The notes below the pieces were generated by a model, which worked only from the letters and a program-made list of their open reading frames with translations, did no database searches and was not told the DNA's origin. From Minisyncoccia bacterium (GTDB lineage: Bacteria; Patescibacteriota; Minisyncoccia; Phycocordibacterales; UBA918), in the NCBI GenBank assembly GCA_046598345.1, contig JBKJIT010000001.1:1-42250 (forward strand): DNA of 42,250 nt, in the 5' to 3' direction. Each line of letters opens with the position of its first letter. Position 1 is the stretch's first letter. Shown here in pieces: positions 1 through 32,776 of this stretch. The translations under genes and the position numbers were made by a program.

Positions 1-75
1 GAGGACGGTACAGGCTTCATATCGTGCTCCTTACGTCCGCGCGATGTATTCAGCCTCTTCGATCCCTTAGGCTCA
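1..75 (-). repeat. tRNA-linked cassette type B with antisense T-arm of tRNA-Arg(GCG); runs off window start
   Basis: Plus strand 58-67 TTCGATCCCT equals the T-arm of the tRNA at 10904-10975, so it is antisense on the tRNA strand. Minus strand reads GAA-GAGGCT...ATCG..CGAT..GAAGCCT-GTACC-GTCC, closely resembling the cassette after tRNA-Leu (35560-35660). Confidence 0.7.
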
Positions 76-87
76 TTGAAAATAGTA

Positions 88-189
88 TATCTTGGCGTCA
101 GCTCACTAATTCACTTCGTTCATAAGTGGCTCCTGCCCGGTCTCGCGTTTGTGGCATGAGGAATAGCCACAACATCGCTCCGACTCACA
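88..189 (-). repeat. tRNA-linked structured cassette type A, copy 1
   Basis: Minus-strand core GGGCAGGAGCCACTTATGAACGAAGTGAATTAGTGAGCTGACGCC; clearly homologous to 32577-32680, 26304-26400 and 30525-30616. Confidence 0.85.
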
Positions 190-235
190 AACGCAAAACG
201 ACTTGAAGCAGTTCAAGTCGTTTTGTCTTATTGTG
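186..235 (-). terminator. Long hairpin, the probable original 3' flank of tRNA-Arg(GCG)
   Basis: CAAAACGACTTGAA-GCAG-TTCAAGTCGTTTTG inverted repeat with CACAA/TTGTG outer arms. It has the same style as the hairpins directly after the other five tRNAs. Confidence 0.65.
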
Positions 236-406
236 CAGGCGACTTATGGCTTTCAGAACTGTTCCAAAGCAGATACGATATTAGGACTGCAATACAGAGG
301 TTGGACGCGATGTTTGTTTAAAATGACCTACAATTACCTACAATGCTGGCTGGATGGACTCTCTGCAGCTGCAAAAAATACCCCTTAATGTTAGTATATC
401 GTCACA

Positions 407-1504
407 ATGTCTAAGAAAGTGATCTTCAAATTAGCTGAATTGTTTTGCGGACCCGGAGGTCTGTCACTGGGAGCTACCCGGGCAAAACTTAAACACCAGG
501 ACAACATCTATGAGGTGACGCCTATTTGGGCAAATGACATTGATGAGGACACTTGTAATACCTACGCAAGCAATCTTCACGATGGAAATCGGGAAAATGT
601 CATATGTGCTCCTGTGGAAACAATCGACTTTAAAAAAGTCCCCCGTTTTGATGCCCTAGCTTTTGGTTTTCCTTGTAATGATTTTTCTCTCGTAGGTGAG
701 CAGAAAGGTTTTGATGGAAAATTCGGACCCTTATATTCCTACGGTGTGCGAGCCATTGAAGCCCACAGCCCAAAGTGGTTTTTTGCTGAAAATGTAGGGG
801 GTCTACAGAGCGCTAACGGCGGTGAAGCATTTAAACAAATTCTTCGTGATTTAGAAAGCGCTGGTAAGGGTTATGAGATTACTCCCCATCTTTATAAATT
901 TGAAGAATATGGAGTTCCTCAATTGAGACATCGTGTTGTCATTATTGGCATTAGGAAAGATCTTGGATTGAAGTTTAGAGTACCCGCTCCTACAACAAAA
1001 GATAAGTACCTTACTATGCAGGAAATCTTAGAAGATGACCCAATTCCTCTGAATGCAAGAAATCATGAACTTACCAAACAATCTGCAATTGTAGTGGAAA
1101 GGTTGAGTCACATACCGCCAGGTCAAAATGCTTGGTACGAAGGCATACCTTTACACCTACGTTTGAATGTAAAAGGGGCTCGAATGAGTCAGATTTATCG
1201 AAAGCTACATCCTAATAAACCCTCCTACACTCTCACAGGGAGTGGTGGTGGTGGAACGCATGGTTATCATTGGAAGGAAAACCGAGCCCTTACCAATAGA
1301 GAGCGAGCAAGAATCCAAACGTTCCCTGACAGTTTCTTCTTTATGGGTTCTAAAGAAAGCGTTCGCAAGCAAATAGGTATGGCTGTTCCGCCGAAGGGTG
1401 CGCAAGTGATAGTAGAAGCTATTTTGAAGACTTTTGCCCGAAAGAGCTATTCATCTATTGAACAAAAATTCAAACTTGAAGAAATCTTGAGAGAAATCTT
1501 ATAA
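407..1504 (+). CDS. dcm: DNA (cytosine-5) methyltransferase
   Basis: Motif I LFCGPGG, motif IV GFPCNDFS, motif VI ENV, PQxRxR, and C-terminal RERARIQTFPD...IGMAVPP. Confidence 0.96.
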   Translation: MSKKVIFKLAELFCGPGGLSLGATRAKLKHQDNIYEVTPIWANDIDEDTCNTYASNLHDGNRENVICAPVETIDFKKVPRFDALAFGFPCNDFSLVGEQKGFDGKFGPLYSYGVRAIEAHSPKWFFAENVGGLQSANGGEAFKQILRDLESAGKGYEITPHLYKFEEYGVPQLRHRVVIIGIRKDLGLKFRVPAPTTKDKYLTMQEILEDDPIPLNARNHELTKQSAIVVERLSHIPPGQNAWYEGIPLHLRLNVKGARMSQIYRKLHPNKPSYTLTGSGGGGTHGYHWKENRALTNRERARIQTFPDSFFFMGSKESVRKQIGMAVPPKGAQVIVEAILKTFARKSYSSIEQKFKLEEILREIL

Positions 1505-2344
1505 TCGAGCTATTAGTTGTTTCCAAGAGGTTTCCTCTTTATGCATTAGGCCTGAAGGTATTACATACCTGACACCAGTAAACTCCTGTCCGGGAATACT
1601 AGTTACTTCTTTCAGATCCTTTTCTTCACACCATCCTGCAATTTCATACGGAATTTCTTCAAAGCCCGGGATTAGATCTTTATATCTATCAAAGTGTTGA
1701 TGTCCTTCCATAAGTTCCTTTACTTTATCCTTAGAAATCCTAAGCAGATGATCGTCTGGTATGTCTACTCTACAAAATATATATACATCAGATTTTCTTC
1801 CTTCTCTAACATCACCCTCACTTAAAACGAGGTAACTACTCTTAGGCTTTGAGGTTTTGATGCCGACACCAATTCTAGGTGTTCTTCTAACACCTTCGTC
1901 TGTGATAAAAGAAACATCCTGTGCCACAAACTCGTCTCTGATTTCAAAATCTAATTCTATATCGATGTTAAATTTTTCTTTAAGAAACTTCTGAAATGCT
2001 AATTCACCTAATTGCCCTTTCATCCAGTTACTAACTTTTTGCCCAAACTCCCTTTTCCGCCCGGTTCCAAAATCAGAGTTAACGTAATTTTTATAATGCA
2101 TTGCTAATGCAAAATCTAAACAACGAGTATAGTCCTCAAAACTAAGCACCCCTGACCTCCAATTAAAACTTTGTTTCCAAGCTTCTAAGTCACTTATCTT
2201 AAACTTAAAGAATCCTCTATTGCTGGGTCTTAGTAGCGCATTGAATTCCCGAGCATTCTTAAAGTAATTATCAAAGGTTTTAGCGTCTATATTTAAAAAG
2301 GCAATTGCCTGCTTTTTTGCAACAATTTCATCTATAGTTTCCAT
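1499..2344 (-). CDS. Putative restriction endonuclease (PD-(D/E)XK-like) with N-terminal HTH-like region
   Basis: Convergent with the MTase. It has a GQLGE..QD..GIKTSK nuclease-like pattern, and the N-terminal AIAFLNIDAKTFDNY resembles an excisionase-type HTH. Start METIDE lies 7 nt after TATACT. Confidence 0.65.
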   Translation of the reverse strand: METIDEIVAKKQAIAFLNIDAKTFDNYFKNAREFNALLRPSNRGFFKFKISDLEAWKQSFNWRSGVLSFEDYTRCLDFALAMHYKNYVNSDFGTGRKREFGQKVSNWMKGQLGELAFQKFLKEKFNIDIELDFEIRDEFVAQDVSFITDEGVRRTPRIGVGIKTSKPKSSYLVLSEGDVREGRKSDVYIFCRVDIPDDHLLRISKDKVKELMEGHQHFDRYKDLIPGFEEIPYEIAGWCEEKDLKEVTSIPGQEFTGVRYVIPSGLMHKEETSWKQLIARL

Positions 2345-2564
2345 CGTAAATAGTATAGCAGAGCGTTTCACCCAGTTTGTCCTTAGTCACGCTCACCCTT
2401 TTATAGCGTTACTACACCAAGCTTTTTATAGTGTGAACAAATTGATCACGAAATTCCATTCCAAATCCATTGCATTTCTAGATAATTGGTATTTTTCTTG
2501 TACAGCAGACTATCGGAAGGGTAGTAGAAAGTGAGGTTATACCAGGTCTTTTATGCTGAAAATG

Positions 2565-2903
2565 CTAGGTTTTGTAGGGTTCTTCTTTTGATTCAGCTTT
2601 CTCTTTAAGAAAAGAGATGCCATTCTTGTATCCATCTTCTGTAATAGCTTTCATTTCAAAGTGAGTGGGCTTTTTAAAAAGGACGTCACCTTTTTTTTGG
2701 AGATCAGCAACTGTTCTCGCCACCCATTCGTTTACGGCTCTTTCGTTAACTTCTATTCTGTTTAAACCTTGACTCAGATACTCATAAGAGGCACATAGTA
2801 ATACTTCTGTTTTACGATTAGATTGATCTGAAATAAACTCCACTTTAGTCCAGAAACTATCAGTCGAGAAATCTCTATACAACTTACCTGTAATAGTTTG
2901 CAT
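2565..2903 (-). CDS. Hypothetical protein, 112 aa, directly downstream of the DUF3800 gene
   Basis: ATG-started ORF, 9 nt gap to the upstream gene, natural composition. Confidence 0.7.
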   Translation of the reverse strand: MQTITGKLYRDFSTDSFWTKVEFISDQSNRKTEVLLCASYEYLSQGLNRIEVNERAVNEWVARTVADLQKKGDVLFKKPTHFEMKAITEDGYKNGISFLKEKAESKEEPYKT

Positions 2904-2912
2904 GTCTATACA

Positions 2913-3734
2913 TTATACCTGACTAATCAGTCGATTAAACTTTGCTTGTAGATTATTTTTAGCTGTTCGACACCATTCTTGTGAAGTTCTTATGGGATAG
3001 ATATTGAAGCCACTACCAGTTATTTTCATACCTACACCCCTATCGACAGCCCAGAAGTTATTCTTTATTTGGGGTAAAAAATTGTGTCCCATTTCTCTAA
3101 AACTTACGAAAATTGCTCCTAATACCACATCGTTAATTTGATGCAAATAACTATCTTCGTTTTCAACCTGTATTATAGGCAACGCAATTTTTTTTAAAAT
3201 ATATCGACTAGTATCTCTAGTACCTCCATTGGGGAACAGGTCAATGCAATGCAAATCCATATCAGACTTTACAGCATCCCCAAAGCGATCTGCCATGACT
3301 ATGCCGTAATTCTCTCTGCCTAGGTACTGGTCAAATTGATACAGCAAATCGTTTATACCGTACTTATGGGATCGTATCTGTGTCTTGGGGTCTAATGTCA
3401 TCTTAATTTTACCATCTTCTTTTATGGTTCGACTATGATAGAACTGGTGTGGACTCAAACACACAATTAGTTTAGCTCCTGATTCAGAAAACAATGTAAG
3501 TACTTCGTCTTTAACATTACGATGCGTGTCTCCGTCTAAAGTACTTCCTTCCCAGCGTTCGTTATTCCATTTAATTGGTCTAATCTTAGGTAGTCCGTAC
3601 TTCACTTTAATATTTAAAATTCCTTCTGCTAAAGGCTTTGCCTCAGTTTCATCAACCACAATTCCACCATACATAAAAAAACCAATTTTAGTGTCCCAAG
3701 CAAGACTACTTTCATCAGCTATTAGTAGTTTCAT
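2913..3734 (-). CDS. DUF3800 family protein (RNase H-like)
   Basis: N-terminal MKLLIADES...FFMYGG and C-terminal SYLHQINDVV match the DES / Q.AD signature. Start moved to ATG 3734. Confidence 0.75.
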   Translation of the reverse strand: MKLLIADESSLAWDTKIGFFMYGGIVVDETEAKPLAEGILNIKVKYGLPKIRPIKWNNERWEGSTLDGDTHRNVKDEVLTLFSESGAKLIVCLSPHQFYHSRTIKEDGKIKMTLDPKTQIRSHKYGINDLLYQFDQYLGRENYGIVMADRFGDAVKSDMDLHCIDLFPNGGTRDTSRYILKKIALPIIQVENEDSYLHQINDVVLGAIFVSFREMGHNFLPQIKNNFWAVDRGVGMKITGSGFNIYPIRTSQEWCRTAKNNLQAKFNRLISQV

Positions 3735-3937
3735 TGCATTCCATAATATTCCTTTCATCTTCAGAAATCTATAGATGAGCTCAAACTTCCCAAGTTCTCT
3801 CACTGGGAGTAATGGTCTGCAGGTTTTGCAGGTGTCATTTGCTTCAAATTTAAAGTCTTTCACAGCGTCAGCACGTTAGCTACGCGGTCTTTTTACTTTA
3901 AAAATATGTTATTGTAGAAATACAACTGAATATAAAT

Positions 3938-4098
3938 GACCTAACCCTACAGCTCATAAGCCGTAGGTATGGTCGAAAAACGCATTCAACATAGAGAACC
4001 CGTCATTAGGGCGTTGAATGCGTTATAGAGGGAAACTTCTATAGGACCGTAAGGTCTCCTAGTGGCGGGCTTTGTGTTTTAACATAAGCCCCTACTAG
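3938..4098 (+). ncRNA. Candidate structured ncRNA or long leader (five consecutive hairpins)
   Basis: Stems at 3938-3974, 3979-4024 (12 bp perfect), 4024-4043 (GAAA loop), 4045-4056 (GTAA loop) and 4059-4098. Confidence 0.6.
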
Positions 4099-4128
4099 CG
4101 CATTAGCAACAGGGCTTTTATTTTTTAT

Positions 4129-4671
4129 ATGAAACACCTCACAAGAACCCCCCTCATGGTGGCATTTATTGTTCTACTACCCTTAGCCACTTTTGGTGCA
4201 CAAACGATGTTTACTGAGACAAGTGTGCAACGCGCATACCAATCACAGCAGAAGGAAATTGAAACTCAAATTACTTCTAATATGAAGGCTATGGTTCTTC
4301 TCTCAACAAAAGGTAGAGGGTGTTCTTGGTATCCAGAAGTTGGAAAAGCAACCTCAGCAGAAAGAGAAGCTTGCAAGAAATGGGTCGCTTTGGAAGAACA
4401 AAATAATCAGTTGAACGAGGATAAAAGAATTCTTGATGTTGCATACAAACTTCTTGTTGGTTCCTTTAAGGCGGAAGAAAAAGCGAACTTGGAAGAAACG
4501 GAGAAAACCAAAGCAGCACAACAAAAGAAACTAGATGCCATTCAGAAAAATGGATTCTACATTGAATGTAATGTTGATGGTAGTAGCTGTGTGAGATGGG
4601 TAAGCGGGTCGTGTTATCAAGAGCGTAACAAAAATGGCACGTACTCTTCCCTTAGGCAGTGTGGCGGGTAG
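4129..4671 (+). CDS. Secreted hypothetical protein with coiled coil and six Cys
   Basis: Signal peptide MKHL...ATFGA; Cys-rich C-terminus. Confidence 0.75.
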   Translation: MKHLTRTPLMVAFIVLLPLATFGAQTMFTETSVQRAYQSQQKEIETQITSNMKAMVLLSTKGRGCSWYPEVGKATSAEREACKKWVALEEQNNQLNEDKRILDVAYKLLVGSFKAEEKANLEETEKTKAAQQKKLDAIQKNGFYIECNVDGSSCVRWVSGSCYQERNKNGTYSSLRQCGG

Positions 4672-4708
4672 ATCAACGCACCAAGGTTTCATAAATAAAT
4701 GAAATTAT

Positions 4709-5536
4709 ATGGAAAATATTTACCCACTCAAAAAAAGGTCTCCTTCTAATATTTTGGGGTATTTTGAACATCTCCTGCTCGTAGAAGATGAAAATGAGGT
4801 TCTTTGCAATAGCATCAAAAATGAAATGAGTAAGATTGGGTATGAGTTAGTACCTTATTCAGCGGAAAGAGCAGATGCCAAGTCATTCCTTTCAAAAAAG
4901 GCCAGTAAATTTGTGTATCCATACAAAAACAAACAAGCACCACACAGTGATCTATATAATGTCTATGCGAAACTTGGACCCCTTATTCAAGAGGCTTGGC
5001 AGAGGCAATTGAAGACCTTAGAAAAAGATGATAATAAAAATGAAAGCGTTTCTAATGTGATACTCAATGAAAAAGTGGTTCAGAATATACGAAGTAGGTA
5101 TTCTTTAGAAGAGCTCCATAAAATCTACAGTGACCACGATCACGGCTCTGGGAGTATTTTCTCCATGAAAACTTTGACGTTAATCAAGTATGTTTCTTTG
5201 GCTTTAATTATTTTTTCTGTCTTTTTTAATTCTATTTTTTTGTCGATAATAGCTTTTGTTATGGGAACTTACTCTTTTTCACAAACAGCTAAGAATCTAG
5301 CTTATGAGGAAGGTTCATCGGATGGCATTAATGATGGCTATGAATATGGAGAGAATACTACATACCTAAGCTTGTTAGAAAATGACATGAAAGGATCATA
5401 TCTGCATCTTTGGAATCTATTATATGGAGACGGTTACAACAACCGTGAAAATCCAGACGATAAAAATTTTAATGAATTTCTTGATAAGAAAATAAAGGAA
5501 GAGGAGGACACTAAACTAGAACAAAAGGATATTTGA
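4709..5536 (+). CDS. Hypothetical membrane protein
   Basis: 275 aa ORF with a central hydrophobic hairpin (YVSLALIIFSVFFNSIFLSIIAFVMG). Confidence 0.75.
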   Translation: MENIYPLKKRSPSNILGYFEHLLLVEDENEVLCNSIKNEMSKIGYELVPYSAERADAKSFLSKKASKFVYPYKNKQAPHSDLYNVYAKLGPLIQEAWQRQLKTLEKDDNKNESVSNVILNEKVVQNIRSRYSLEELHKIYSDHDHGSGSIFSMKTLTLIKYVSLALIIFSVFFNSIFLSIIAFVMGTYSFSQTAKNLAYEEGSSDGINDGYEYGENTTYLSLLENDMKGSYLHLWNLLYGDGYNNRENPDDKNFNEFLDKKIKEEEDTKLEQKDI

Positions 5537-5715
5537 AATCGGCTAATTTCTCAAAACATTGTGCGATAGTGGTGTCGAGTGAAGGTAACTGAAGGCCCGG
5601 GGACTGTGAAATCTGCCTATTAAAGCCTATCTTTCCAACTATACTCGCATGCACTGTAAGCATGGGGCGACGACTCAAAAACAAGTTCTCAATGTTTGTT
5701 TTGTGACCAAATAAC

Positions 5716-5752
5716 AGGTTATGACAAGGTTTTACGAGGTTCTTCATAGGGA
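5716..5752. promoter_or_regulatory. Helically phased AGGTT repeats
   Basis: AGGTT at 5716, 5727 and 5737, and AGGGA at 5748. Confidence 0.4.
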
Positions 5753-6001
5753 TCATACCTACAATAACCTGCAATTTTGGAGGTTCATATCAGTCTTGTT
5801 TTTCAACCATCTCAGGTTTTTTAGGGCTTTAAGGTTTGATCGGCTACCAATTCAGCTCAGAAACAAGTCATGTCACCTTATTGAGTAAAGGCTTATATAT
5901 TTGGCTACTTTAGGCATATAAATGCGATACGGCTTGGTTTTGGACTCCCGGAGTACGTAGATTAAGCTAAGTAAAGCTAGGTTGTTGTTTAAGATTGAAA
6001 A

Positions 6002-6685
6002 ATGTATGATTTTACTATGAAACCTGGTCAGAAGAATAAAAAAGACGCTCATCTAGTACTCGACATGATTGAGCACTACCAGAAGCGTAACACCACAGAG
6101 GGTGTTACAACTATTTCTGGAACTCAAGATTTCGATCTGGATTTTGATACATTTGACGCAGTTGTCCGTGATTTGCAAACCTTTTTTAAAGATGAGATTG
6201 AAATAGTAAATATTTATGATTCCATAAATGAGGAGCATTGGTTGAATCCTCCTATGCGTGGATACCCTGAGCATCGTCCTGTTGCAGAATTGCGTATCAA
6301 AGGACCAGTTGGCAAACTTCGATCTCTTGTTGAATCAGAATATAAGAGTTTGGTTAGCAATAAAATTGAAATCATCATCGACAAAAAGCATGGTCTTTAT
6401 ATGAAATCGCATCCAGATAGATCGTATGAACTTCAGCACAAAACTAAAAATGTAGTAACAAAAAGATATCGGTTGATTGAGAAATTGATCAAAGCAAAAA
6501 GGATCGTTAGTGGTCCCAAGCTCCGGGGGGAGTTGGGTTATGAAACAATCTCTCTGGTGGGCCAGGAGATAAAGAAAATTAATAACGGTTGTCGTGAAAA
6601 GGCGGGTTTGTTTGACGATCTAATAAGCCATCAAAATACAGGTGGTTATGAAATAAATTCTCGTTACAGCATTTCATTAAAGTAA
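6002..6685 (+). CDS. Putative regulator with C-terminal winged helix (OmpR/ToxR-like)
   Basis: C-terminal LIEKL...VSGPKLRGELG...IKKIN...LISHQNTGGYEIN pattern; lies upstream of the primase. Confidence 0.6.
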   Translation: MYDFTMKPGQKNKKDAHLVLDMIEHYQKRNTTEGVTTISGTQDFDLDFDTFDAVVRDLQTFFKDEIEIVNIYDSINEEHWLNPPMRGYPEHRPVAELRIKGPVGKLRSLVESEYKSLVSNKIEIIIDKKHGLYMKSHPDRSYELQHKTKNVVTKRYRLIEKLIKAKRIVSGPKLRGELGYETISLVGQEIKKINNGCREKAGLFDDLISHQNTGGYEINSRYSISLK

Positions 6686-6710
6686 CCTTCTCGTAACCTC
6701 TAGATAACCT
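6683..6710. promoter_or_regulatory. Three TAACCT direct repeats at 11 bp spacing
   Basis: TAACCT at 6683, 6694 and 6705; inverted AGGTTA at 6770. Confidence 0.5.
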
Positions 6711-6848
6711 GTGCATTAGTTTTAAAAACCCATTTATATATGGGCTTTTTTAGTGTCTTTTAAGTTACGAGGTTATGTGACGCTATTGATCAAAATTCGA
6801 GATGATAGTTCTATCACCGAATAATAAATCCCGGTGACTTAAAAAACT

Positions 6849-8939
6849 ATGGAAACTACAAGTAGGCTCACCTCTGCACTACACTACCAGGCAATTGGCT
6901 GGTCTATTATCCCAGTCAATAAGAATAAGATTCCGTATCTTAAGACGTGGAGGGAGTTTCAGAAAAGAAAACCAACAGAACAAGAACTACGTAGTTGGTG
7001 GAGTAAGTGGCCGGGCGCTAATCCCGCAGTAGTAACAGGAGAGATATCTGGGTTAGTAGTTCTTGATATAGACATAAAACACAATCGTTCGTCAAAAGAA
7101 TTTGATATCCCACTAACTGTTTGTAGTAAAACGGGCAGTGGTGGCGAACATGTTTTTTTTAAGCACCCGAAGCGACGAGTAAAAAGTACCAACAGTCAGC
7201 TTTTTGGTTTAGGTGTAGACATGAAAGCAGATGGCGGTTATGTGGTTCTGCCACCAGGCGAAAACAACAATGGTTCTTATGAATGGTTAGTCAGTCCAGA
7301 AGATGCTGAAATTTCCGATGCCCCCGTATGGTTACTGAAAGCATTTGGAGAGCAGAGCAAAAGTAAACAAAAACTATGGCAAAAAGGTATCGGAGGTGTT
7401 GGTGAGGGACTAAGGAATGAGACGGCAGCTTCCATGGCTGGGAAGATTATGAGTAATTGTAGTCCAGAACTATTGAGTACTATTGGGTGGGGTCAGTTTG
7501 TTGCTTGGAACAACAATAATGACCCGCCACTCAACGACCGAGAGCTTCATCTTGTTTGGGATAGTATATCTACACTACAAAGTGGGTCAAATCTTGAGAC
7601 ACAGAAAGTTAGCTTAGATGACGACCAATACGAAAAACTTATCGTGGCAAGTAAGGATCCTAAGGAGGTGGCGTATGCAGTCGCTCAATATTTGAGTCGT
7701 AAGTACTACCTAAAAACACCAGACAACAAAAACCGCGAAATCTTTGCGTATAGAGCTGGTTGTTATCGTGAATCTGATAATTTCCTAAAACAAGAAGTGC
7801 AAAGAATTTTAACTAACAGACTCACCCGTTCGCTACTGAGTGAAATTATAGAACACATTAAAAACCTTACACTTGTAGACGAAAAAAAATTAGAAGTCAG
7901 CAAGGATTTAATAAATCTAAAAAATGGTATTTATTCCATTGTTGATAAACAACTTACTGAACACTCACCAAAATACTTTTTCACTTGGCAACTACCACTT
8001 AACTACGTCGCTGGAGCGACATGTCCCGCAGTCATGGGGGCACTAAATACAATTCTGAGTGCTGACGACATTAAAGTGATCCAAGAATGGTTCGGCTATT
8101 GTTTGTATCGGGATTATGCGTTGAAAAAATCAGTCATTTTCGTTGGTGAGCAGAATACGGGTAAGACAACTCTCCTCTCATTGTTTATTTCTTTTGTAGG
8201 TGTAGAAAACATATCGGGCGTTAGTCTGGAGCAGTTAACTTCAACTACATTTGCCCTCGCACACTTGCGAGACAAGTTCATCAATATTTATGATGATCTC
8301 TCGTACAAAGACGTAAACGATAACGGGATGTTCAAGATGGTTACAGGAAACGGAACCATTACCGGCGAATTCAAATATGGTCACCAATTTCAGTTTCGAA
8401 ACTTCGCAAAGCTGACTTTTTCCTGCAATAAGATACCAAATGTTAAGGATGCGTATGACGAAGCATACTTTAACCGCTGGATCATTATCGAATTCAATCG
8501 ACAGATAGAGAAACCTGACCCAGCTCTCTTTAACAAAATCTCTACAGATGAAGAGCTTTCGGGACTACTTAACTTCTCCCTGGAAGGACTAACAAGGCTT
8601 CTTAAGAATGGCAAGTTCTCATACGAAAAGAGTGAGGACGAAATCAAGGAACAGATGCAAAAGTCCGGTTCACCTGTTGCGCAGTTCGCATACGACTGCT
8701 TGGAGGAATATGGAGGTGGGAGCATCGCTAAAGACGACATGGTCCAATATTTTAGAGCATATGCAAAAGACCATGCCTTGCCGTCCATGTCGAAAGAAAA
8801 GTTGGGCCGAAAGTTACCTCAGTACGCAACTTACATAGACGGGGGAAGACAAGGAGGAAGGGGAATACAAATATCAGTATGGCAAAACGTCAGGCTTAAA
8901 GACGGTTTGTTTTCTGATATCAACCCGAATGACTTTTAA
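6849..8939 (+). CDS. Phage/plasmid primase-helicase (Prim-Pol + PriCT-1 + D5-type SF3 helicase)
   Basis: GWSIIPV..K.P, VLDID, TGSGGEHVFF, GGYVVLPP, EGLRN, NLKNGI, Walker A GEQNTGKT, FSCN. Confidence 0.93.
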   Translation: METTSRLTSALHYQAIGWSIIPVNKNKIPYLKTWREFQKRKPTEQELRSWWSKWPGANPAVVTGEISGLVVLDIDIKHNRSSKEFDIPLTVCSKTGSGGEHVFFKHPKRRVKSTNSQLFGLGVDMKADGGYVVLPPGENNNGSYEWLVSPEDAEISDAPVWLLKAFGEQSKSKQKLWQKGIGGVGEGLRNETAASMAGKIMSNCSPELLSTIGWGQFVAWNNNNDPPLNDRELHLVWDSISTLQSGSNLETQKVSLDDDQYEKLIVASKDPKEVAYAVAQYLSRKYYLKTPDNKNREIFAYRAGCYRESDNFLKQEVQRILTNRLTRSLLSEIIEHIKNLTLVDEKKLEVSKDLINLKNGIYSIVDKQLTEHSPKYFFTWQLPLNYVAGATCPAVMGALNTILSADDIKVIQEWFGYCLYRDYALKKSVIFVGEQNTGKTTLLSLFISFVGVENISGVSLEQLTSTTFALAHLRDKFINIYDDLSYKDVNDNGMFKMVTGNGTITGEFKYGHQFQFRNFAKLTFSCNKIPNVKDAYDEAYFNRWIIIEFNRQIEKPDPALFNKISTDEELSGLLNFSLEGLTRLLKNGKFSYEKSEDEIKEQMQKSGSPVAQFAYDCLEEYGGGSIAKDDMVQYFRAYAKDHALPSMSKEKLGRKLPQYATYIDGGRQGGRGIQISVWQNVRLKDGLFSDINPNDF

Positions 8940-9052
8940 ATGCAGTGACCATAGTAGGCATTTAAACCAAAACTAAGGAATCCAATATAAAAAAAGCTCA
9001 TAAGAGCTACCAACAGAAAAGCCCGCTACACCAACTACCATTCAACGATACA

Positions 9053-9298
9053 ATGAAAAAGTTACCTGAAAAAACTCGAAATGTAGACTCACTTGCTGAC
9101 AATACGAGTCAAACGGGTTTTTCAAATGGTCACTCTCAACAACGGCAGTCCTCATTCGGTGTCAAAGAAATTAAAGCGTATACCGAACTTGGTCTCATCT
9201 TAAGACGTATTCATAAACGTATGAATACAGAACAAATTGAAATTACTAAATATGGAAACTCCAATCAAGAAAATAAAAGCGAAGGCTTACCAAGATGA
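9053..9298 (+). CDS. Small protein overlapping the recombinase start (candidate directionality factor)
   Basis: ATG-started 81 aa ORF between the primase and recombinase; function inferred from position only. Confidence 0.45.
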   Translation: MKKLPEKTRNVDSLADNTSQTGFSNGHSQQRQSSFGVKEIKAYTELGLILRRIHKRMNTEQIEITKYGNSNQENKSEGLPR

Positions 9299-10964
9299 AT
9301 ATTTGATCTACAATAGAAAAAGTACCGACGATTCAGAAAATCAAAAGAATTCTTTAGGTCACCAAAAGCGAGAAAATATTGCCTTTGCAAAGACCTATGG
9401 GTTACGCATAGCTCAAGTAACTCAGGAAGGTTTCTGTATTCATGGTGTTATTTCAGAATCGCACTCCGGCTTTAAGGAAGACTCAGATTTAACCTTCACT
9501 GACAATGGTTCTGTCCAATACAAGATAAACCGCCCGAAATTCAATCAACTCGCCCAATATTTAAATGAGGGATATTTTGCAGGTATTATCTGTATGTCAT
9601 GGGACAGATTGAGTCGCAATAAGACAGATAACGCAATCATCACAAAGCTTATTCGAAGGGGTGTAGATATTAAGTTTGTTACAGCAACGTATGAGGACAC
9701 AAGTGCAGGTGCGCTACATATGGATATTGATGGTATGTTCGCGCAGCATCACTCACGCGTAACACGAGAAAAGGTAACAAACGCAATGCATAGAATGCGA
9801 GATGATGGAATCGTTGTGTACATTGCTCCAATGGGGTATCTGAACACAGGAGCAAAGTATCAAGACATTGGGAGTACTGAACACAAACCCTTTGATCCTG
9901 TACGTGCCCCAATCATTAAAGATATCTTTGAAAAGTATGCGACTGGCGAATGGTCCATGCCAGACTTAGCGAAATGGGCTAATGAACAAGGTTTAAGAAA
10001 CTTCGCAAAAAGAAGAAATCGAACAAAATCTGAGATATTGGCGGAAAATCCTGTTGCACTTGAGAAGGTAGAAAAGCCAATTAATTCAAATAATATTTAT
10101 TACATTCTAGGAAACAAGTTTTATACTGGCTTAATGAGGAATAGCCGGAATCAATGGATTCCGAGCATTAGTCACGAACCTCTTATTGATCAAGAGCTAT
10201 TTGATAGAGTTCAAAAGATGCGGAATAAGAAGCAGGTGAGCATTTGGTATAAGGAAAAGGTTGGTCACGCCCTGCGAGGCTTTGTTCGGTGCGCTGACTG
10301 TGGCAGGGTTTATACCCCATATATGAAGAAGGGTATTCAATACTTCAGTTCCCGTTGTTCGGAAGGGTGTCAGAATGCAAGGAAAAGCTGCAACTTGAAC
10401 TTTATTGAAAGTGAGATAGGTAAACACATGCCTCATTTATTCCTTGAACCTCATGAACTGGACGAGTTAGATCAGAAAGCTGATACGGGTATTGCTGTAT
10501 TGGAGATGAAAATGAAAAAAGACCAAGAACAGTCTGAAAGAAAGGAGAGGAAACTGAATGAGGACTTGTCTTATCTGCGAGCTAATCGGCTTGACCTCCT
10601 TAAATCTGGAGTCTATATCCCCAATACATATATTGAGGAGGAGCGATTGCTCTTGTCTGCATTAAGTCAGGTTCAGGAAAAAGAAGTAATTTCGCGAGAG
10701 GCTATACATCAAACAATCAAAGATGCGATGCGTCTTTCAGAATTGCTCAATAACCTTACCCTGTACTACGAAAAAGCCACCTCGTCAGAAAGGGAAGAAA
10801 TTATGCGTTGTATTTTTTCAGAACTAAGTCTGAATGATAAAAGCCTTAGTTACCAACTCAAAACAGAGTTTCGAGCTTTGAAAAAGGATTCTACCTTGTC
10901 GAGTGCTCTCACCAGGGATCGAACCTGGATCTTAGGTACCGCAAACCTAAATTCTATCCATTAA
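9252..10964 (+). CDS. Large serine recombinase (integrase)
   Basis: YNRKS catalytic Ser, DRLSR, APMGY, NKFYTG, HEPLID..LFDRVQ, zinc ribbon CADCG, coiled coil. Confidence 0.95.
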   Translation: METPIKKIKAKAYQDEYLIYNRKSTDDSENQKNSLGHQKRENIAFAKTYGLRIAQVTQEGFCIHGVISESHSGFKEDSDLTFTDNGSVQYKINRPKFNQLAQYLNEGYFAGIICMSWDRLSRNKTDNAIITKLIRRGVDIKFVTATYEDTSAGALHMDIDGMFAQHHSRVTREKVTNAMHRMRDDGIVVYIAPMGYLNTGAKYQDIGSTEHKPFDPVRAPIIKDIFEKYATGEWSMPDLAKWANEQGLRNFAKRRNRTKSEILAENPVALEKVEKPINSNNIYYILGNKFYTGLMRNSRNQWIPSISHEPLIDQELFDRVQKMRNKKQVSIWYKEKVGHALRGFVRCADCGRVYTPYMKKGIQYFSSRCSEGCQNARKSCNLNFIESEIGKHMPHLFLEPHELDELDQKADTGIAVLEMKMKKDQEQSERKERKLNEDLSYLRANRLDLLKSGVYIPNTYIEEERLLLSALSQVQEKEVISREAIHQTIKDAMRLSELLNNLTLYYEKATSSEREEIMRCIFSELSLNDKSLSYQLKTEFRALKKDSTLSSALTRDRTWILGTANLNSIH

Positions 10965-10975
10965 ACTATGAGAGC
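10904..10975 (-). tRNA. tRNA-Arg(GCG)
   Basis: GCTCTCA/TGAGAGC acceptor stem, TAGGT-TTGCGGT-ACCTA anticodon arm, GGTTCGATCC T-arm. Confidence 0.92.
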
Positions 10976-11028
10976 GAATGGCACGGATAATACCATACAT
11001 ATACCGACATGCGAAGGAGACTGTACGG

Positions 11029-32334: not shown

Positions 32335-32382
32335 CAAAATACAAAAAACCACCAGAATAGATCTGGCAGTTTTTTGCATTTG

Positions 32383-32455
32383 TGGGCGATGAGGGATTCG
32401 AACCCCCGACCTTCTCAGTGTAAATGAGCTGCTCTACCAACTGAGCTAATCGCCC
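32383..32455 (-). tRNA. tRNA-Val(TAC)
   Basis: GGGCGAT acceptor, TTTACAC loop, GGTTCGAATCC. Confidence 0.95.
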
Positions 32456-32576: not shown

Positions 32577-32680
32577 TATCTCGGCGTCAGGTCACTAATT
32601 CGCCTACGCTCATAAGTGCCTCCTGCCCGGCCTCACGGTTTCGCCATTAAGGTGCAGGCGAAACATCGCTCCGGCTCACA
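32577..32680 (-). repeat. tRNA-linked cassette A copy 4 (upstream of tRNA-Val)
   Basis: Highly similar to 88-189; core GGGCAGGAGGCACTTATGAGCGTAGGCGAATTAGTGACCTGACGCC. Confidence 0.85.
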
Positions 32681-32776
32681 GACGAAATGAAAGTAAAACT
32701 GTCTACTTTCATTCATTCGTCTGTGCGCCCATAGTATCGTTTTTTGAAATTAATTCAATACGCGTATACTAGGCGC

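Follow-up and report, generated by a model that had tools for sequence, protein, structure and literature searches.

A large serine recombinase gene at a tRNA-Arg gene in Patescibacteria: evidence for an attachment site within its reading frame and for exchange of its C-terminal tail on integration

Organisation of the locus

The stretch of DNA considered here (the window) comprises the first 42,250 bases of contig C2 of a Minisyncoccia genome (943 kb, 4 contigs, 97% complete). Judged from the sequence, an integrative, self-replicating element of 10.7 kb occupies the region between 233 and 10906, inserted right where the gene for tRNA-Arg(GCG) reaches its 3′ end, and our main subject is the gene at the tRNA end of this element, which encodes a large serine recombinase (LSR). 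The tRNA gene is intact and was placed by ARAGORN at 10903-10975 on the minus strand, where it forms the B′ half of the attachment site. The match to the tRNA model in an Rfam scan spans 10904-10975, and base 10904 is therefore the discriminator and 10903 the first base past it. Among the 36 tRNAs found in the genome this is the only one carrying a GCG anticodon, so insertion must leave it functional.

The LSR gene (9252-10964, plus strand) encodes 570 residues, of which 1-551 come from the element and the last 19 from DNA antisense to the tRNA gene. Its open reading frame (ORF) opens at 9237 with the first ATG at 9252, and ends in ...STLSSALTRDRTWILGTANLNSIH with a TAA at 10962-10964, inside the tRNA gene on the other strand, as an earlier, sequence-only reading of the window had noticed. 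The product matches the Pfam families Resolvase (PF00239, E 7.5e-17) and Recombinase (PF07508, E 2.9e-16) as well as phrog_95, ‘integrase’ (E 9.9e-59), and can be assigned on this basis to the large serine recombinases. The match to Zn_ribbon_recom (PF13408, E 0.0048) has 17.7 bits, under the Pfam cut-off of 25.3. Across 50 homologues R22, S24 and D26 of the ..YNRKSTD.. motif are invariant, R22 and S24 being catalytic, as are the zinc-ribbon cysteines C347, C369 and C373, with C350 nearly invariant.

The two ends of the element share the plus-strand tetranucleotide GTGC, found at 233-236 (left junction, attR), within which the crossover is placed, and at 10903-10906 (right junction, attL), where it complements tRNA positions 71-73 and one further base. 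At both junctions its G takes the second position of a codon (AGT GCT in the recombinase frame, TGT GCA in the frame of 235-321), so a join anywhere inside GTGC keeps the frame. The joined gene would thereby acquire an orphan 3′ end at 235-321 (plus strand) of 28 codons (AGDLWLSELFQSRYDIRTAIQRLDAMFV) and a stop, which starts AGDLWLSEL... Translation of 160-321 gives ...VVLSYCAGDLWLSELFQSRYDIRTAIQRLDAMFV (also read ...SYCAGDLWLSELFQSRYDIRTAIQRLDAMFV) with the stop at 319-321. The paired tetranucleotides, and the reciprocal join that stays in frame up to this stop, had both been proposed in the sequence-only reading, and both are borne out. Within the orphan tail TGGCTTTCAGAAC (247-259, plus strand) holds the W-L-S-E-L codons, a DNA motif that is kept across the family and may be the motif of the P′ half-site read by the zinc-ribbon domain. 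The tail has no convincing start in the chromosome, its only in-frame start codon being a TTG at 223-225 within a hairpin.

A profile was built from the tails of 53 homologues, with that of the window excluded, and searched against 27,607 six-frame fragments of the genome. There were two matches, C4:125902-126027 (E 1.4e-10) and window 160-318 (E 4.5e-5), and the next fragment had an E-value of 2.2. The GTGC repeat is more than chance because the 235-318 peptide matches this profile of homologue C-termini. No displaced tRNA fragment was seen as a direct repeat in the window, where only GTGC is repeated (233-236) and no second match to the tRNA 3′ end was reported.

Recurrence of the layout in related elements

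With 8000 scored, 885 relatives of the LSR had an E-value of 1e-3 or lower, and we examined the best 120. Of these, 53 end in a tail of about 30 residues (..[CGS][DA]P.xW[LI]SEL......I...I..L..), the same peptide as that encoded at 235-318, and a conserved WLSEL-like tail among homologues had been anticipated from the window alone. Most of the other best 120 end in peptides antisense to a tRNA, such as ..CDPTGNRTPI.. or ..CPNR, and this is also true of the two closest homologues (86% and 83% identity), which end in ..ALTRNRTW...

The surroundings of the gene were compared in 80 loci from genome contigs (genome_contigs) and 80 from metagenome contigs, 76 of the latter having a readable C-terminus. 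The LSR ORF ends inside an antisense tRNA in 38/80 and 37/76 loci, respectively. Among the genome loci, those labelled Patescibacteria (35) include 29 that are tRNA-ended, none with an intact tail, 5 with other tails and 1 without a C-terminus. The 36 from other phyla comprise 25 with an intact tail and no tRNA nearby, 1 tRNA-ended, 3 with degenerate tails and 7 incomplete; 8 of the 9 unlabelled loci are tRNA-ended. The remaining readable metagenome loci have intact tails (30) or other tails (5), or run off the contig (4). The target in the 75 tRNA-ended loci is tRNA-Glu(TTC/CTC) in 64, tRNA-Ala in 5, tRNA-Leu in 3, tRNA-Arg in 2 and tRNA-Val in 1. In annotation, the recombinase genes of these genomes have chimeric ends.

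Orphan tails were counted in the 75 tRNA-ended loci plus the window. An orphan tail lies upstream on the same strand in 23/76, the nearest at 5.5-11.5 kb from the tRNA end (median 8.9 kb). Detection varied with the upstream sequence available: 19/39 with 8 kb or more, 4/14 with 3-8 kb and 0/23 with under 3 kb. As a strand control, W[LIVF]SE was found upstream 24 times on the plus strand vs 2 on the minus, and 9 vs 0 times in a second set. One locus, L101, has an LSR 86% identical to that of the window and lies at the same tRNA-Arg(GCG) in another host, with a host flank unrelated to that of the window (32% ungapped identity); its orphan tail, AGDLWLSELFLSRYDIKLAICKLDELFV followed by a stop, stands 10.0 kb away and is 75% identical to the window tail. 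In these comparisons the layout recurs across a family of Patescibacteria elements, with tRNA-Glu as the usual target. The far border of such islands is fixed to the base by the orphan tails.

For 26 recombinase/orphan pairs, the two junctions were aligned on the in-frame site that precedes the Trp codon by 14 nt. All 26 pairs have the same bases in both junctions at positions 0-3 ([G/A]TG[A/C/G]), against 12/26 at position -1 and 12/26 at position +4. This final alignment admits in-frame anchors only, so that the frame is built into its result of 4/4 bases matching in 26/26 pairs. In some pairs the common core is longer than 4 bp, up to 15 bp. The core begins at the tRNA 3′ end called by ARAGORN in 20/26 pairs (offset 0) and otherwise at -1 to +3. 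With the core at the tRNA 3′ end, the crossover falls in the last acceptor pairs, the discriminator and one further base, leaving the mature tRNA unchanged. Two other ways of finding the core were rejected. A longest-common-substring search put 17/29 pairs in frame, having caught chance matches where the true core is 4 bp, and an anchored run-length search put 24/26 in frame, with the window tied between TTGT and GTGC and L085 misplaced by a T-run.

The excised state is represented in a relative. A circular metagenome contig (L117; 11,834 bp with a 127-bp terminal overlap) has no tRNA, carries type III restriction-modification genes and holds an uninterrupted recombinase gene ending in ..CDPIAWLSELLSNREEIRKCILKMEMVVNCV, whose product is 71% identical to a recombinase integrated in Patescibacteria. 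This is the state predicted for the excised form, in a relative of the window’s element. The proposal that attP lies inside the integrase gene, so that the integrated and excised forms differ in their tails, is thus upheld by the same layout in 22 further loci together with this circle.

The empty site was reconstructed from related genomes, of which 9/10 have a C directly behind the ...GAGAGCA of tRNA-Arg(GCG), and a long hairpin follows within a few bases of the tRNA in 7/9 of those with further sequence. On the tRNA strand, the left flank of the window reads GCAC-AATAAGAC and continues into a long hairpin at 193-226, a 15-pair terminator-like site on the B-arm side of attR, in the same layout as the relatives. 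Relatives lacking the element have tRNA-Arg(GCG), then C(A)A.., then the hairpin, and the tRNA-plus-hairpin arrangement that had been forecast for the joined flanks therefore holds. Folding of 150-240 as minus-strand RNA gave -35.3 kcal/mol (z = -4.3), with none of 200 shuffles equally stable, and in the empty site the hairpin would act as a terminator directly after the tRNA gene.

Some loci hold more than one orphan tail. L021 has four (3379, 3984, 4960, 6154), and L064 and L108 have two each, 0.5-1.2 kb apart and upstream of one integrated element. These strings suggest repeated insertion at the regenerated tRNA end followed by deletion of the older element, and would then be a record of past insertions. 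A second orphan WLSEL tail (SDPIAWLSELYKDQQYIKSSIQLLSDFVS and a stop) is present in the genome of the window at C4:125880-126520, about 400 nt from a tRNA-Glu(CTC) and with no recombinase there. At this place a block of about 120 nt that includes the pre-core hairpin is present twice, with a 19-nt partial copy of the tRNA 3′ end between, and the tail has the look of a scar left when an element of the tRNA-Glu clade was lost.

At the far junction of two loci (L059, with 80-nt junction identity, and L177, with 34 nt or more) the tail is accompanied by a second copy of the final 30-76 nt of the recombinase gene. Such a junction amounts to the shortened 3′ end of a recombinase gene that has kept its tail, which tandem insertion, or homologous exchange between related elements, would be expected to produce. 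A third recurrent C-terminal tail (..EEILTLARTYF..) is found in L047, L150 and the proteins P0049 and P0103 (..EEILTLARTYFEQN, ..DEIITFARTYFQSQSD). In L047 a tRNA-Glu lies 5 kb further on, and another insert seems to part the recombinase from it.

The attachment site within the coding sequence

These comparisons locate attP, as far as sequence can, inside the recombinase ORF and 28 codons before its natural stop. On the element side (P′) the motif GAAC stands at +23..26 from the core, and in the tRNA it stands at +18..21, in the antisense of the T-loop (G53-T54-Psi55-C56 read backwards). For the LI integrase, the published account gives the motif recognised by the zinc-ribbon domain as positions 16-24 in attP half-sites and 11-19 in attB (PMC3783163). 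The same 5-bp shift, with the motif nearer the centre in attB, is seen here in the right half-sites only; the left arms are less clear. This suggests that the T-loop may serve as the host-side motif for the zinc-ribbon domain.

A search for a dyad axis in 45 intact attP regions gave a best axis at -0.5, with a palindrome score of 0.346 vs about 0.31-0.32 elsewhere; in the 45-site consensus TT.GAAA.CC mirrors GG.TTTC.AA about this axis. As a locator of the central dinucleotide the axis was rejected, being too weak and in disagreement with the junction identities.

As the sequence shows, recombination within GTGC leaves the tRNA intact, fuses codons 1-551 to 19 tRNA-antisense codons at attL and strands the 28-codon tail at attR. 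Only the last 28 of about 579 codons are exchanged and every domain is kept in one ORF, so the chromosomal copy would retain its catalytic and DNA-binding domains with a meaningless tail. In the model that we propose, excision would rebuild the full-length gene, and because of this the full-length enzyme with the WLSEL helix would be made only from the episomal circle and would be the one to integrate. If the mobility of the elements is as high as their scattered distribution suggests, the chromosomal isoform must have kept the ability to excise. The W-L-S-E codons would double as the recognition motif for the zinc-ribbon domain in the P′ half-site, and the tRNA T-loop would offer the same GAAC motif 5 bp nearer the crossover, as in the attB half-sites of known serine integrases. 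A host-side motif supplied by the T-loop would explain why this family is able to use tRNA genes.

We hold the architecture as described to be very probable, and are confident, to a slightly lower degree, that element, attachment site in the ORF and tail swap are as a whole the best explanation of the locus. Several observations weigh against it. The common core in the window is 4 bp only. No orphan tail is within reach in 20 of the 39 loci with at least 8 kb upstream. The empty site is deduced from other species of the genus and not from an allele of the same species, and neither the window’s own empty site nor its circle junction was seen in reads, contigs or relatives. No directionality factor was recognised among the element ORFs by Pfam, PHROGs or NCBIfam. 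The P/P′ axis at -0.5 lies one base left of the core, where the junctions differ, and so conflicts with the junction identities, while the LI geometry would put the central dinucleotide at GC (10905-06), a palindrome, and this would be out of the ordinary for a serine integrase. The invariance of the W-L-S-E codons means that part of the conservation of the tail is a constraint on DNA and is no proof of a protein function. Lastly, in 25/36 of the loci outside Patescibacteria (Bacteroidota, Proteobacteria, Acidobacteriota, Verrucomicrobia) the gene is intact although it lies in a chromosome; integration by the family is therefore not always through this site, and the tail swap may be confined to a clade. 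The idea that these intact copies disprove the model was set aside. They are most simply unrecombined, and are read as unrecombined sites because the same DNA motif is conserved in them.

The exchanged tail as protein

Codon use was analysed in 80 distinct tails. Over the core and TGGCTTTCNGAA it is close to fixed (Cys TGT 51/51, Asp GAC 41/41, Leu+1 CTT 69/73, Glu+3 GAA 79/80; only codon choice counts at W, S and E, because the regular expression fixes those residues), which shows a constraint at the level of DNA. Near-invariant W-L-S-E codons would be expected if attP overlapped the last codons for compactness alone, with a dispensable tail, two equivalent isoforms, conservation that reflects a DNA half-site and any directionality provided by another factor. 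Such a neutral overlap is also in keeping with the small extent of the swap, which removes 28 of about 579 residues and no known domain, and with the tRNA-derived tails, which differ in length and sequence with the tRNA.

Other features of the tail speak for selection on the protein, and we consider a neutral overlap unlikely. Ile+11, Ile+15 and Leu+18 are kept while every synonymous codon for them occurs, which shows selection at the protein level. The orphan tails of the window and L101, from different hosts, differ mostly synonymously (pN 0.173, pS 0.532; small counts, 18 synonymous sites). Orphan tails retain open frames of 23-30 codons with similar end points, and the tail is retained in distant phyla at 45-50% protein identity. 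It is reasonably likely, in our view, that the tail is a functional part of the protein.

An AlphaFold (AF2) model of an intact homologue, P0004, was obtained from a 53-row alignment (mean pLDDT 80.4) and has the usual LSR domains: a helix at 154-186, a helical domain at 205-328, strands at 347-383 and helices at 402-446 and 459-478 (coiled coil 402-478), followed by further helices and two strands up to 551. The pLDDT dips to 62 at the crossover region, and the tail forms helices at 555-564 and 566-578 (pLDDT about 77-79). The best Foldseek matches are the SPbeta, Bxb1, PhiC31 and LI integrases (E 1.6e-15 to 5.5e-9). A zinc ribbon with an inserted coiled coil is thus supported by the invariant cysteines, the model and the Foldseek matches.

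When the tail (553-585) was folded against residues 335-552 the score was 0.35 (runs 0.31, 0.35 and 0.52) vs 0.03 for the best control. Contact agreement between runs is 77% or higher, and the pLDDT of the partner is 65 or higher. The mark used for complex prediction is reached by 116/157 solved complexes and 2/215 mismatched pairs; at scores of 0.60 or under it is reached by 18/157 solved complexes and by both of the passing mismatches. Some packing is likely beforehand, the tail and 335-552 being parts of one chain. The result lends weak support to packing of the tail, and its weakness is in keeping with a neutral overlap.

Serine integrases are the main tools for the insertion of large DNA, and the control of their direction is an active structural question. 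If the tail packs on the zinc-ribbon/coiled-coil region, its loss could alter directionality or activity, and the state of the element would then set the reaction; we put this at somewhat less than an even chance. A more specific version is that the WLSEL helix is a built-in determinant of directionality. Since attP lies in the ORF, integration itself removes this helix, and would convert the enzyme to the opposite activity or to none without a separate factor, with the same codons serving as half-site and the T-loop as their host counterpart. This version we regard as doubtful. A recent study reports that the PhiC31 directionality factor binds the zinc-ribbon domain, with contacts that include the extreme C-terminus of the integrase (bioRxiv 10.1101/2025.05.02.651858), which makes a role of the C-terminal tail in directionality plausible, no more. 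In a natural family whose recombinase C-terminus depends on state, one can test directly whether a tail is able to take the place of a directionality factor.

Fate of the integrated copy

The chromosomal isoform could also be inactive, exit then needing full-length enzyme from a related episomal element. A recombinase that is locked in by its own integration is a concept documented for archaea (PMC8371274). Scars and arrays (the four orphan tails of L021 and the pairs in L064 and L108) point to decay in place and not to clean excision, as does the recombinase-less orphan tail beside tRNA-Glu(CTC) in the same genome. In G024, which belongs to another genus, a C-terminal LSR remnant with 72% identity and an internal stop codon abuts tRNA-Arg(GCG). 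The contigs of the sole sequencing run that holds the window, probably its source, give one contig from 78 to beyond 12000 with no joints, no loose ends and no alternative junction; they say nothing on rare excision, because contigs drop rare variants. Two further runs of the same study, without the window, were compared alongside.

Against an inactive isoform, scars form with any integrative element, and the catalytic and DNA-binding domains are all intact. The integrated recombinase genes are under strong purifying selection (pN 0.082, pS 0.755 between the bodies of the window and L101 recombinases). The elements are also sporadic among close species, which argues for continuing mobility: the stretch with the tRNA gene and right flank is matched in 20/20 other species of the genus, and the window’s recombinase was found in none of these 20 genomes (best match 42% identity). 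We think an inactive chromosomal isoform quite unlikely.

The weakest alternative, that the ORF reads into the tRNA for want of a stop, that GTGC at 233 is a chance 4-mer and that 235-321 is no part of the gene, could appeal to the expectation of any 4-mer every 256 bases and to the commonness of 28-codon open frames in A+T-rich DNA, but is extremely improbable and is refuted by a genome-wide profile match (E 4.5e-5) exactly at the 4-mer and in phase, the same arrangement in 22 other loci (23 with orphan tails in all), cores shared in frame by 26/26 pairs (in-frame anchors only) and a circular contig with the joined gene.

Comparison with known systems

Like the serine integrases of LI/A118, Bxb1, PhiC31 and SPbeta, the LSR of the window combines a resolvase catalytic domain, a recombinase domain and a zinc ribbon with a coiled-coil insertion. 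Its junctions have a short core and no long direct repeats, and in the right half-sites a motif stands 5 bp nearer the crossover on the host side, as given for LI (PMC3783163). It is unlike them in targeting the 3′ end of a tRNA gene and in having an extra C-terminal helical region of about 100 residues.

The closest parallel in layout is with the archaeal ‘suicidal’ integrases of the SSV type (SSV1, pTN3, pT26-2), in which the att site lies in the integrase ORF and integration at a tRNA gene breaks the gene (PMC8371274). In both cases the gene is intact only in the episome. The archaeal enzymes are tyrosine recombinases (Phage_integr_3), whereas ours is a bacterial serine recombinase from hosts labelled Patescibacteria. 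Theirs are split into two pseudogenes with the catalytic domain separated, whereas the LSR loses 28 codons and gains a substitute tail.

In mycobacteriophage BPs, attP lies in a coding sequence and integration alters the C-terminus and behaviour of the product (PMC4557955). There the gene is that of a repressor, the integrase is a tyrosine one and the tail removed is an ssrA-like degradation tag, whereas here it is the recombinase itself that is altered. The ends of intact tails among the homologues are variable (..SGGR, ..NLGL, ..MRF, ..AMFV), with no shared terminal tag.

Tycheposons are likewise small tRNA-adjacent elements with a primase/helicase replication module and cargo, and in 27/937 the recombinase is a large serine one and not of the tyrosine type (bioRxiv 10.1101/2020.12.28.424599). 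Their hosts are cyanobacterial, and the passages compared here, by description only, do not mention attP within the recombinase or a tail swap. Classical tRNA-gene islands (the Islander signature) use a tyrosine integrase and displace a tRNA fragment tens of bases long, which forms a direct repeat at their far end, where the window has an LSR and GTGC only. In the sib retroregulation of phage lambda, integration changes the sequence 3′ of int, so that int expression differs between phage and prophage. Both there and here integration changes what lies 3′ of the integrase gene; sib, however, acts on mRNA stability and not on protein sequence. The LSR of the window belongs neither to the ‘suicidal’ integrases nor to the BPs repressor family, though it works in part like each.

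Searches among viruses and plasmids were nearly empty, with one weak relative (27% identity) in IMG/VR viral contigs and no tblastn match at E 1e-30 in PLSDB plasmids, and the family is therefore not a known phage or plasmid gene; nor did these collections yield further episomal copies. A literature search, with subscription journals and the supplements of LSR surveys outside its scope, turned up no account of a serine integrase whose own ORF holds attP, or of these elements of Patescibacteria. The findings contradict a 2014 statement that serine integrases are not known to target tRNA genes, and a 2021 statement that recombinases disrupting their own gene occur only in archaea.

The match of the half-site motif to the universal T-loop points to a possible way of directing a serine integrase to tRNA genes, and may help in building tools for Patescibacteria, which are poor in them. 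If the reading of the tail as a directionality switch were true, the archaeal ‘suicidal’ integrases would have here their first counterpart in bacteria and among serine recombinases, and the family would be one of serine integrases aimed at tRNA genes by design. The system should be of interest to those working on site-specific recombination and on the mobile elements of Patescibacteria.

Cargo and flanking sequences

The replication module of the element is a PrimPol fused to a D5/P4-type primase-helicase (6849-8939, plus strand; PF09250 E 1.8e-30, DUF5906, D5_N), which also matches TIGR01613 (E 1.2e-47) and phrog_864 (E 2.3e-76). A C-5 cytosine DNA methyltransferase is encoded at 407-1504 (plus strand; PF00145 E 1.9e-74, TIGR00675 E 2.4e-53), convergent with a 290-residue ORF (1499-2371, minus strand) that has no match in Pfam, PHROGs or NCBIfam and may, as a guess, be the restriction partner of the methylase. 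A DUF3800 protein is encoded at 2913-3863 (minus strand; PF12686 E 3.8e-4), and between its gene and an ORF at 4129-4671 lies a LOOT RNA (Rfam RF03000; 3938-4057, plus strand; 79.7 bits vs a gathering score of 46.4, E 4.1e-14). An 81-residue ORF (9053-9298, plus strand) overlaps the start of the recombinase gene. It has no Pfam match and is one of six element ORFs without a match in PHROGs or NCBIfam; we would guess at it as a candidate regulator or directionality factor. The G+C content is 0.36-0.42 within the element vs 0.44-0.45 in the flanks.

In phyla other than Patescibacteria the recombinase gene is found in mobilisable islands. In L020 the island is bounded by tRNA-Phe and a tyrosine integrase, with a relaxase-family gene nearby. 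Of five further loci outside Patescibacteria, three have a coupling-protein-like gene just upstream of the LSR and four have ArdC near it; several have tyrosine integrases and one has a second LSR. The LSR with intact tail is divergent from a coupling-protein-like gene of about 390-450 aa (TrwB_AAD_bind) in L020, L083, L091 and L099, and L091 and L099 have ArdC and a tyrosine integrase nearby.

Ahead of the tRNA gene a promoter-like site is found at 10987-11015 (minus strand; consensus match 9/12 with an extended TG). Such sites are rarer in the region than in shuffles, so this one is weakly supported; the next terminator-like site on the tRNA strand beyond it, itself on weak evidence, comes only at 9008-8995. 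Transcripts from this promoter (11015-10987) would pass antisense through the recombinase gene, and could form a second layer of control.

The host flank at 1-232 (minus strand) is the former 3′ trailer of tRNA-Arg(GCG). Contig C3 continues the start of the window, with an overlap of bases 1-94. The flank includes a repeat of about 100 nt (88-196), with copies at window 32577-32687 (C2:32577), C4:179204-179258 and C4:134581-134674 at 78-91% identity. Several tRNA genes adjoin copies of this repeat, the window copy at 32577-32687 standing beside tRNA-Val (32382-32455). The repeat is probably behind the contig break at the start of the window; the depth of Logan contigs is 23.7 over 1-107 vs 12.9 elsewhere.

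Window bases 1-75 are homologous to a module found 3′ of tRNA-Arg(GCG) in the relatives L009, L010 and L012. This module is genus-wide (L009, L010, L012, L017, L018) and extends here from window 1-232 into C3:95-260. It consists, in order, of the hairpin, the reverse complement of the tRNA acceptor and T-arm (GTGCTC.., CAGGGATCGAA), internal stems and a direct copy of the tRNA 3′ end (GATTCCTGGTGAGAGCAC), which is degenerate in the genome of the window. Its two halves could pair, and there are two readings of the module, as a structured RNA or as the scar of an old integration. Two species of the genus also have exact copies, 22 nt long, of the 3′ end of tRNA-Arg(GCG) at a distance of 0.3-4.3 kb from that gene (G016:C1:848654-848675 and 848833-848854; G005:C12:604-625). 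Copies of this kind are the signature of other elements that use this tRNA, probably by means of tyrosine integrases.

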